Positions 62,510 to 63,119 of a stretch of DNA of 63,217 nucleotides are shown here, piece after piece. The stretch lies in NCBI RefSeq assembly GCF_003334255.1, contig NZ_QOWU01000026.1. One strand, 5' to 3'. A program made the position numbers and the translations under genes. How positions within the stretch are numbered: position 1 is the first letter of the stretch; every line of letters begins with the position of its first letter. The stretch comes from Escherichia coli (GTDB taxonomy: Bacteria > Pseudomonadota > Gammaproteobacteria > Enterobacterales > Enterobacteriaceae). The notes under the pieces are model-generated. The model did no database searches. It saw only the letters and a list, made by a program, of their open reading frames with translations, and was not told where the DNA came from.

Positions 62510-62880
62510 AAAACATTTTACAATCGTAAAAATCCTCATATCATGATAAGAATGGTTACATTGCCACGCAGCCGAATCCGCCGATGAGCGGGCTTTTTTG
62601 TTGCTGAAAAAGAAAACAACAGGTGGTTAGCAGGGTATCAGTTAATCGGGGAAATTTTTAAATACCTCACAATTCAGCAAGTTGATGATTGTCTGGCTGG
62701 CGGTGAATTTGTTAAAAATCGCAACGCATGGTGAATCCCCCTCAGCGGCGGGGCGGCTGGTGCGGGCTGGCATTTTTAATGTCACAGGCAATGTGAAAGA
62801 CGCGGGTTCGGTGGCACCGGGCTGAACTCACCGGGAGGCACCCGGCACTATGCAGTTAACTGAAACCAGGTAATACTCTC

Positions 62881-62906
62881 AGGCCCCTCATCGCAGGGGC
62901 CTTTTT
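62881..62906 (+). terminator. Rho-independent terminator
   Basis: AGGCCCCT-catcgc-AGGGGCCT followed by TTTTT. Confidence 0.7.
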
Positions 62907-62912
62907 ACATGC

Positions 62913-62938
62913 AAAAAAAGCCCGCGCCGGGAGGCGCG
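62913..62938 (-). terminator. Rho-independent terminator (opposite strand)
   Basis: CGCGCC-ggga-GGCGCG hairpin preceded on + strand by A7 (U-run on minus strand). Confidence 0.6.
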
Positions 62939-63119
62939 AGCGGCAAGGAATAAAACAAAGAAAGTGAGTTTCGATTATTCACCGTGTGAATAATACCCGA
63001 TGGTGATGAGACTGCGCAACTGCGCGGCCTTTTCGTTTTTACTGGCAGTTGTCTTTTGTATTTTCAGACTTCAGTCAGTCCTTATCTGATTCAACCCACT
63101 ATCCCGGCCGGGAGGATTC

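Follow-up and report, generated by a model that had tools for sequence, protein, structure and literature searches.

What occupies the roughly 610 bp between the restriction-modification (RM) cargo and the nanS-p esterase gene of an Escherichia coli prophage, and what the hairpins and opposed terminators found there belong to, was the question of the present analysis. The region concerned, positions 62510-63120, lies near the end of a stretch of 63,217 nucleotides (nt) of contig NZ_QOWU01000026.1, which as a whole is called the window, and is flanked by BcgI-like RM cargo on one side and by nanS-p and lysis genes on the other. A preliminary description had reported about 370 bp without an open reading frame (ORF), a GC-rich hairpin sequence and back-to-back intrinsic terminators insulating the cargo from the next gene. 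As an observation this was confirmed: the quoted hairpin sequence is located at 62809-62848, no ORF of at least 50 aa exists between the stop codon of the S-subunit gene (62509) and the start of nanS-p (63121), and it is merely the length that has to be corrected to about 610 bp. In 918 bp the terminator scan counted six terminator-like sites, compared to 0.9 +/- 0.8 in shuffles. The interpretation was right in part, missing that two small RNA (sRNA) genes are present. In our reading, to which a probability of about 0.8 is assigned, the region comprises two convergent, independently transcribed sRNA genes, of STnc100 type on the plus strand (+) and EcOnc08-like on the minus strand (-), at the junction of moron and late operon.

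The covariance-model search against Rfam proposed in the preliminary description identified the plus-strand element as STnc100 (RF02076). Positions 62696-62912 (+) match model positions 1-206 of 206 with 149.2 bits (E 3.6e-33; the Rfam gathering score for this family is 47 bits), and our own covariance model, R1, scores the core of the element at 89 bits. As a typical STnc100 member whose arrangement has been described before, it is already known: it is located between late-promoter cargo and the esterase and lysis genes on the strand of the late genes, and the same order is found in the Shiga toxin (Stx) 2 phage and in prophage Sp4 of strain Sakai. A family member lies 75 nt downstream of stx2B (PMC12370729), and STnc100 overlaps the Hfq-binding sRNA EcOnc27/sRNA103 (PMC12711010; PMC7873438). 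Other Rfam families were rejected, as they gave only weak chance matches (nse_sRNA, Yar_3, suhB, GlsR16), and so were tRNA and tmRNA, for which ARAGORN finds in the window only tRNA-Arg(CCU) at 37754-37828.

Folding energy did not distinguish the element. The z-scores of the minimum free energy were -0.54 for 62696-62912 and -1.63 for the whole spacer, so that stability is not beyond chance and the presence of a structured RNA, correctly recognised in the preliminary description, must rest on comparative evidence, namely the match to STnc100 and the covariation of its helices. The core domain extends from 62726 to 62853 (+) and is closed by the 8-bp helix P1 (62726-62733/62846-62853). P1 is followed by the junction J1/2 (AAU) and by P2 (62737-62741/62747-62752), with C62749 bulged and the loop UCAGC; a pseudoknot joins 62757-62763 (CUGGUGC) with 62814-62820 (GCACCGG), a variable P3 covers 62764-62801, P4 (62804-62811/62822-62829) is followed by A62830, and P5 (62831-62835/62841-62845, 5 bp, loop AGGCA) abuts the 3' strand of P1. 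The same architecture of P1, AAU, a P2 of 5-6 bp with bulge, variable P3, P4, a single A and P5 was common to copies with core lengths of 108-146 nt, which were collected from IMG/VR (120 loci, found by an invariant 19-mer of the 3' hairpin) and from GTDB species representatives (120 further loci, found by a gapped pattern).

When 30 diverse copies were aligned by MAFFT, P1 was paired in 97.9% and P2 in 99.3% of cells, with compensatory changes at six of the eight P1 pairs and four of the six P2 pairs. When 143 distinct GTDB copies were aligned to R1, 93% of cells paired and both sides changed at 23 of 26 pairs, although an alignment fitted to this model leans toward structure; controls with the 3' partner slid by 1-3 columns reached 40-45%, and no shuffle attained the observed value. 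P5 covaries in copies outside the selection by the search pattern (from CCGGG/CCCGG to CCUGG/CCAGG or GGUGG/CCACC), and loops and junctions are conserved as well (J1/2 AAU in 97%, P2 loop UNNGC, P5 loop AGGCA in 95%). The pseudoknot, formed by the P4 loop and the 6-8 nt that directly follow P2 on its 3' side, is lacking in the consensus structure of Rfam. It was assessed by complementarity within each sequence against cross-sequence controls, as register shifts between rows of the MAFFT alignment prevent column-wise counting. At least six contiguous complementary bases were present in 27 of 30 IMG/VR representatives versus 13% of the controls, and in the independent GTDB set, which displayed 98 distinct pair combinations, at least five were present in 92% and at least six in 76% of copies (controls 44% and 19%). 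Judged by these comparisons, the core is a P1-closed domain with a pseudoknot supported by covariation. A contact between the P2 and P5 loops is possible but no more than suggestive; it would consist of UGC/GCA in the main family and, in distant copies, of GCUGAU/AUCAGC. Elsewhere in the window a weak R1 match at 11842-11898 (+) with 11.8 bits (E 0.26) consists of GUGAAU and a P2-like hairpin only and is probably due to chance.

Upstream of the core a block conserved in Sakai Sp4 and the Stx2 phage (62651-62725, +) contains a putative promoter with the -35 hexamer TTGTCT at 62689-62694, an 18-nt spacer and an extended -10 element TGTTAAAAAT at 62710-62719; a possible alternative start lies further upstream at 62669 (+), near the conserved block CACAATTCAG. 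Across the family 36% of copies have a TANNNT hexamer 9 nt ahead of the G in GUGAAU, with a background of mostly 2-5%, and full -35/-10 matches of at least 9/12 are twentyfold commoner in family copies than in control sequence. Since the -10 element is thus position-specific across the family, the primary transcript is expected to begin at P1. From the signals in the window, transcription is predicted to start near 62726 and to give an RNA some 181 nt long, in agreement with the Northern sizes of EcOnc06 (about 177 nt) and EcOnc13 (about 187 nt).

Behind the core follow a linker of 27 nt (62854-62880, AGUUAACUGAAACCAGGUAAUACUCUC), which is predicted to be single-stranded and is a candidate seed or Hfq-contact region, and a Rho-independent terminator with its stem at 62881-62902 and the U-run at 62902-62906, found by the terminator scan and corresponding to Rfam model positions 179-206. 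It consists of eight pairs (six GC) followed by TTTTT. Identical cores in other phages carry other linker and terminator modules, and such an exchange behind a constant core would fit a swappable seed on a constant scaffold. In IMG/VR loci (e.g., L029, L052, L060 and L068; L numbers denote loci throughout) identical cores are joined to at least five unrelated modules of this kind. BLAST homology to different Stx phages begins at differing points within the RNA (query positions 142, 217 and 290), and the STnc100 core seems to be a recombination joint for module exchange.

The second of the opposed terminators, both of which had been seen correctly in the preliminary description, lies on the minus strand at 62941-62920, 18 bp from the first at 62881-62902 (+), and has nine pairs (eight GC) followed by TTTTTTT, with the U-run extending to about 62913. 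It belongs to an EcOnc08-like gene at 63019-62913 (-), for which a -35 hexamer TTGCGC (63019-63014), an 18-nt spacer, a -10 hexamer TATTAT (62995-62990) and a start at about 62983 are predicted, giving an RNA about 70 nt long whose body accounts for some 45 nt. Because the minus strand holds a complete unit from promoter to terminator, the opposed terminators are explained as the 3' ends of two convergent sRNA genes, and that on the minus strand ends a separate gene, whose promoter is its own and conserved. A comparison of nine homologous loci showed conservation of both promoter hexamers and of the 3' 40 nt, whereas the 5' body varies; identity to these loci is about 70-75% over the whole spacer, and the 3' 40 nt are near-identical in loci of Sp4 type. 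The homologous stretch of Sakai Sp4 (L245 639-711) coincides with the EcOnc08 peak at 1179938-1180010 (minus strand) in cross-linking and analysis of cDNA (CRAC) with Hfq, with coordinates that, depending on the genome version, may be off by a few bases, and the adjoining plus-strand peak EcOnc05 covers the STnc100 copy of Sp4. A consensus promoter scan of the region flagged neither of the two proposed promoters, because their -35 hexamers are weak; both rest on conservation across the family.

Downstream of the late promoter pR', eight prophages of strain Sakai were described to hold convergent pairs of Hfq-bound sRNAs, flanked by a moron coding sequence and a conserved ORF (Tree et al. 2014, PMC4104026). 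By its abutting 3' ends and its position between moron and conserved ORF, the pair in the window is such a convergent sRNA dyad at the moron site. A comparable case was recovered by Rfam in the Stx2 phage used as a control, where STnc100 (2408-2613, +) abuts AsxR (2615-2667, -) upstream of the same esterase gene. With EcOnc27/sRNA103 the window RNA shares the full-length model match, the position behind a moron and ahead of nanS-p, the orientation, a terminator of its own and a convergent partner, but its cargo is a BcgI-like RM system instead of stx, and the variable P3 and the linker, i.e., the candidate seed, differ. PasD1 and PasD2 of enteropathogenic E. coli E2348/69, which were compared by description only, are likewise Hfq-dependent prophage sRNAs adjoining Q and a sialic-acid esterase gene, and their seeds are said to differ. 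The minus-strand unit shows the position and layout of AsxR, AgvB and EcOnc08, a variable 5' end being followed by a conserved 3' terminator module. The unit is a homologue of EcOnc08, for which no target or sponge activity is known, and unlike AsxR and AgvB it has a different terminator sequence and a length of about 70 nt versus 51-60 nt. The Rfam models of AsxR (RF02703) and AgvB (RF02702) gave no match at E<=1 in 62300-63217, while the AsxR model reached 88 bits in the Stx2 phage as a positive control, and the 3' region of the minus-strand RNA differs from the conserved 3' region of about 42 nt in AsxR/AgvB (GUAUCUCAUGC..UUGCCCGAACCCA.UCGGGC).

Expression and Hfq binding of the window RNA would be expected from relatives, for which alone they were shown: EcOnc27 by CRAC and Northern blot, and copies of strain EDL933 by RNA-seq and Northern blot. 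EcOnc27 is visible on Northern blots and destabilised without hfq (PMC4104026), and its Hfq CRAC peak comprises the 3' 80 nt, i.e., linker and terminator (PMC4104026 Table S2). PasD, which is structurally related to STnc100 (bioRxiv 10.64898/2026.05.13.724894), is Hfq-dependent and abundant in RIL-seq (PMC8550237), and EDL933 contains 11 STnc100 copies, mostly transcribed and mostly with low ribosome coverage (PMC5331693).

Taken together, the following working model is proposed. The plus-strand gene would be transcribed from a sigma-70 promoter with extended -10 element, with a start at or just before P1 near 62726 and possibly a longer isoform from about 62669, into an RNA in which the pseudoknotted core (62726-62853) is followed by the unstructured 27-nt linker and the Rho-independent terminator up to about 62906. 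The minus-strand gene would yield the RNA of about 70 nt, spanning about 62983-62914, with a variable 5' body and the conserved 3' terminator module. By analogy with their relatives, both RNAs would be made in the lysogen, be bound by Hfq via the module of linker and terminator and act in trans by base pairing on host or phage RNAs, and the conserved core may confer stability, a further function, or both. From general lambdoid biology it may be expected that during lytic growth RNA polymerase modified by Q passes from pR' through all terminators into nanS-p and the lysis genes, and that in the lysogen the terminators also keep transcription of cargo and sRNAs out of nanS-p and the holin gene.

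Several points weigh against this reading. The expression evidence for it comes from relatives and not from this particular phage. The predicted 181 nt are about 55-65 nt below the Northern sizes of EcOnc27 (about 235/247 nt) and EcOnc05 (about 222 nt); these larger sizes would favour a start near 62669 for some copies, and the 5' end is accordingly given in two versions. Targets of STnc100 family members are not known beyond effects of overexpression (PMC7873438), and complementarity of the linker and of the minus-strand 5' body to phage sequence comprises 10-11-mers at chance level only (the linker finds a single 11-mer and two 10-mers in the phage). Finally, there are copies without linker and terminator, in polycistronic arrays or beside tRNAs and ORFs, and Hfq-dependent pairing alone therefore cannot explain the conserved part, which in this family is the core rather than the seed; cores lacking any Hfq module are found as well.

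These copies became apparent when the family was traced across genomes. A blastn-detectable relative of the window copy is present in 1535 of 5426 complete E. coli genomes, at up to six places per genome, while the window variant at >=99% identity was found in only 9 records among them; the family ranges over prophages of the Enterobacterales, in Enterobacteriaceae, Erwiniaceae and Yersiniaceae. In an Enterobacter prophage (L183, oriented 3491-5283) six cores form an array in the interval from Q to holin, three of them back to back with spacers of 6-15 nt and no terminators, and arrays of four to five exist in Pantoea and other genomes. In L009, L018 and L055 up to four divergent cores are interleaved with tRNA-Asn, Thr, Ser and Met at 2-8 nt from the tRNA ends, and in L017 three cores alternate with tRNAs. 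Some relatives lack a terminator and precede an ORF start by 25-45 nt (L014, L077, L099, L105 and dicB of strain K-12). The last of these, a core relative in the Qin prophage of K-12, lies between the DicF terminator and dicB (NC_000913.3, about 1649452-1649583; L244 1953-2084), beginning 17 nt past that terminator and ending about 25 nt before the ATG of dicB. Its P1 is extended and its P5 compensatory (CCUGG/CCAGG); it reaches 78.5 bits with R1 and 34 bits with STnc100 of Rfam, below the gathering score, and is unannotated; the order DicF, RNA, dicB is repeated in L033, L060, L064, L089, L102, L126, L128, L154 and L212. The pseudoknot, the arrays, the tRNA-like fold and association and the dicF-dicB copy were not found described in the searchable literature, which is incomplete.

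As side observations, between three and six divergent copies occupy the interval from Q to holin in L183, L199, L219, L193 and L130, from prophages of Enterobacter, Pantoea, Leclercia and Superficieibacter, and in the L130 array every copy has its own promoter and terminator. Cores interleaved with phage tRNAs, no more than 2-8 nt from the tRNA ends, were seen in L009, L018, L055, L077 and L099 (Asn, Thr, Ser, Met) as well as L017 and L162 (Arg, Gly, Met), and in the former five loci they adjoin genes for DnaB and a DNA methyltransferase, not a late region.

It has thus to be asked whether the core is itself the functional unit, for instance as a protein-binding decoy, a tRNA-like molecule co-processed with tRNAs or a ribozyme, with the Hfq or seed module as an add-on. 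This is compatible with two sRNA genes and, on sequence comparison, may hold, though we would tentatively decide against it. Four nested helices and the pseudoknot covary, nucleotides of junctions and loops are conserved, and P5 abuts the 3' strand of P1 as the T-arm abuts the acceptor stem; the back-to-back cores of L183, the copies interleaved with tRNAs in L009, L018, L055 and L017 and those directly upstream of ORFs, including dicB in K-12, point the same way. Yet no gene of a partner protein co-occurs consistently, and near the arrays only the usual genes for Q, holin and lysozyme were found; ARAGORN calls no tRNA in the core, no Rfam family but STnc100 matches it, and the experimental signal in E. 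coli centres on Hfq at the 3' module. The likeness to tRNA comprises a terminal helix stacked on a 5-bp hairpin, a possible loop-loop contact resembling the elbow and copies in tRNA clusters, but the core lacks an anticodon arm, a CCA-like end and a T-loop consensus and possesses a pseudoknot.

A wider version, which we regard as speculative and somewhat less probable again, would take the STnc100 core as one branch of a large unrecognised class of pseudoknotted RNAs of about 110-145 nt in temperate phages of the Enterobacterales, with a biochemical function of their own. Such a class, doubtful as it is, would share the order P1-AAU-P2-[pseudoknot]-P3-P4-A-P5, with P5 stacked on P1 and a promoter positioned at P1 in each copy. 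It might, with the same reservation, unite the arrays of up to six between Q and holin, the copies in phage tRNA clusters and the dicF-dicB copy of K-12. Its members could conceivably, if rather improbably, serve as a decoy for a protein or RNase, a tRNA mimic, a counter-defence RNA or a ribozyme, the variable 3' modules merely riding along.

The view of the preliminary description, that hairpins and a bidirectional terminator passively separate the cargo from the next gene and no functional RNA is made, is improbable. Four terminator-like sites within 460 bp and the lysis cassette downstream, into which leaky transcription would be costly, speak in its favour. However, insulation does not need a covarying, pseudoknotted domain of 128 nt with its own positioned promoter, and relatives are abundant Hfq-bound RNAs, for which discrete promoter-driven transcripts have already been shown. 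The opposed terminators do exist, but instead of a free-standing bidirectional insulator each is the 3' end of its own sRNA gene: downstream on the minus strand there is no protein gene which the terminator of that strand could stop, and it has only its own short promoter-driven unit to end. Nor does the cargo depend on this pair, as it has its own intrinsic terminator further upstream at 62577-62600 (+; stem 62577-62592 and T-run), found by the terminator scan within the part without homology to Stx phages. It is plausible that in the lysogen transcription leaving the cargo is blocked from entering nanS-p and the holin gene; this would be a by-product, not the reason for the structure.

Even less probable is a cis-acting leader, i.e., a riboswitch, attenuator or stabiliser controlling nanS-p and the lysis genes. 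The orientation is always that of the downstream genes, and some relatives lie 25-45 nt from an ORF start without a terminator; but these downstream genes (esterase, holin, TerB-like, dicB, tRNAs) are unrelated to each other, in the window the minus-strand gene and a third terminator stand between core and nanS-p, and no alternative pairing of core and terminator is conserved. A riboswitch-like antiterminator was considered and rejected: the 3' strand of P2 resembles the 3' strand of the terminator in E. coli copies, and this similarity is absent in L006 and L010. That the region encodes the annotated hypothetical protein of 46 aa (XSB41860.1 in GenBank, WP_162756462.1 in RefSeq; 62685-62825, +), an ORF which does exist atop the STnc100 RNA, can practically be dismissed, for its ATG (gttgATGatt) is replaced by ACT in Sp4 and by ACA in the Stx2 phage, homologous core lengths (108-146 nt) differ by numbers not divisible by three, substitutions are of the compensatory kind that maintains RNA pairing and most EDL933 copies show low ribosome coverage (PMC5331693), so that it is most likely spurious, an annotation artefact. 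The small ORFs of the spacer comprise 47 aa on the plus (62682-62825) and 49 aa on the minus strand (62642-62791).

Lambda 6S RNA is the short, promoter-proximal, terminated pR'-tR' leader in the interval from Q to the lysis genes and is made in lysogens. It and StxS resemble STnc100 in being short terminated transcripts of this interval that are made, or in the case of STnc100 would be made, in the lysogen, whereas the STnc100 gene forms a unit of its own, downstream of both the pR'-tR' unit and the cargo. The possibility that STnc100 is itself the pR'-tR' leader was rejected: pR' is found upstream of both the tRNAs and stx in Stx phages, and L006 and L049 have a separate IsrI/IsrJ unit directly after Q, ahead of the STnc100-like gene. 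In these two prophages IsrI and IsrJ, sRNAs of Salmonella islands, are located at L006 6898-6993 and L049 1643-1721 (-), where they directly follow Q-like genes and closely precede the STnc100-like gene, and may be the pR'-tR' leader transcripts.

With regard to its setting, the window is a lambdoid prophage. Over its last 700 bases it shows 100% identity with Escherichia phage PhiR12_3 (PV340552.1) and with prophages of several human E. coli isolates that have this gene order. In the identical phage and prophages the annotated order is antiterminator Q, hok/sok, a YXWGXW-repeat gene (-), RM cargo, the region and nanS-p, beyond which genes for DUF1378 and DUF826 and then holin, lysozyme, Rz and terminase follow. 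In the window the cargo consists of a gene for a BcgI-like methyltransferase/endonuclease of the HsdM family (59394-61355) and the S-subunit gene (61415-62509), and nanS-p (63121-63217, +), which encodes a SASA-family esterase with N-terminal DUF1737 domain, is cut by the end of the window. This position is the classical cargo ("moron") slot in the late operon of Stx-type lambdoid phages. Homology to Stx phages is absent from 62510-62650 and begins at 62651 (query position 142). The third terminator-like hairpin on the plus strand, found by the terminator scan upstream of nanS-p at 63012-63035 (stem 63012-63027), overlaps the -35 hexamer of the minus-strand promoter; its sequence ctgcgcaactgcgcggcc is identical in the Stx2 phage L123, and a variant ctgcgcaatagcgcggcc occurs in Sakai Sp4 (L245).

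Taken by itself the window copy matters little, being one more catalogued prophage sRNA pair which is mislabelled as a hypothetical protein in public annotation. The family is of wider interest: STnc100 is among the sRNA families that are annotated most often in bacterial genomes (PMC9029176), single nucleotide polymorphisms in it are among the predictors of haemolytic uraemic syndrome in a machine-learning study (PMC12711010), and it adjoins Shiga toxin genes, yet is without known mechanism. What remains of interest is a deeply conserved, unexplained core, and two handles on its function are offered by the conserved part being a pseudoknotted domain also found without the Hfq module and by the relative in the tractable dicBF operon of K-12.

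Two observations from the remainder of the window may be added. Right after the stop of the S-subunit gene, within 62517-62600 (+), a promoter-like site TTTACA-16-TATCAT (10/12) is followed 30 nt later by the terminator at 62577-62592, and could produce a tiny transcript or be due to chance. Further Rfam and ARAGORN matches are the sok antitoxin RNA (58719-58893, +), which adjoins the hok gene after Q, sRNA-Xcc1 (50665-50753, -), isrK beside C4 antisense RNA (41971-42049 and 41860-41945, both -), which in this adjacency form an antirepressor control module of P1/P7 type, and tRNA-Arg(CCU) (37754-37828, -).

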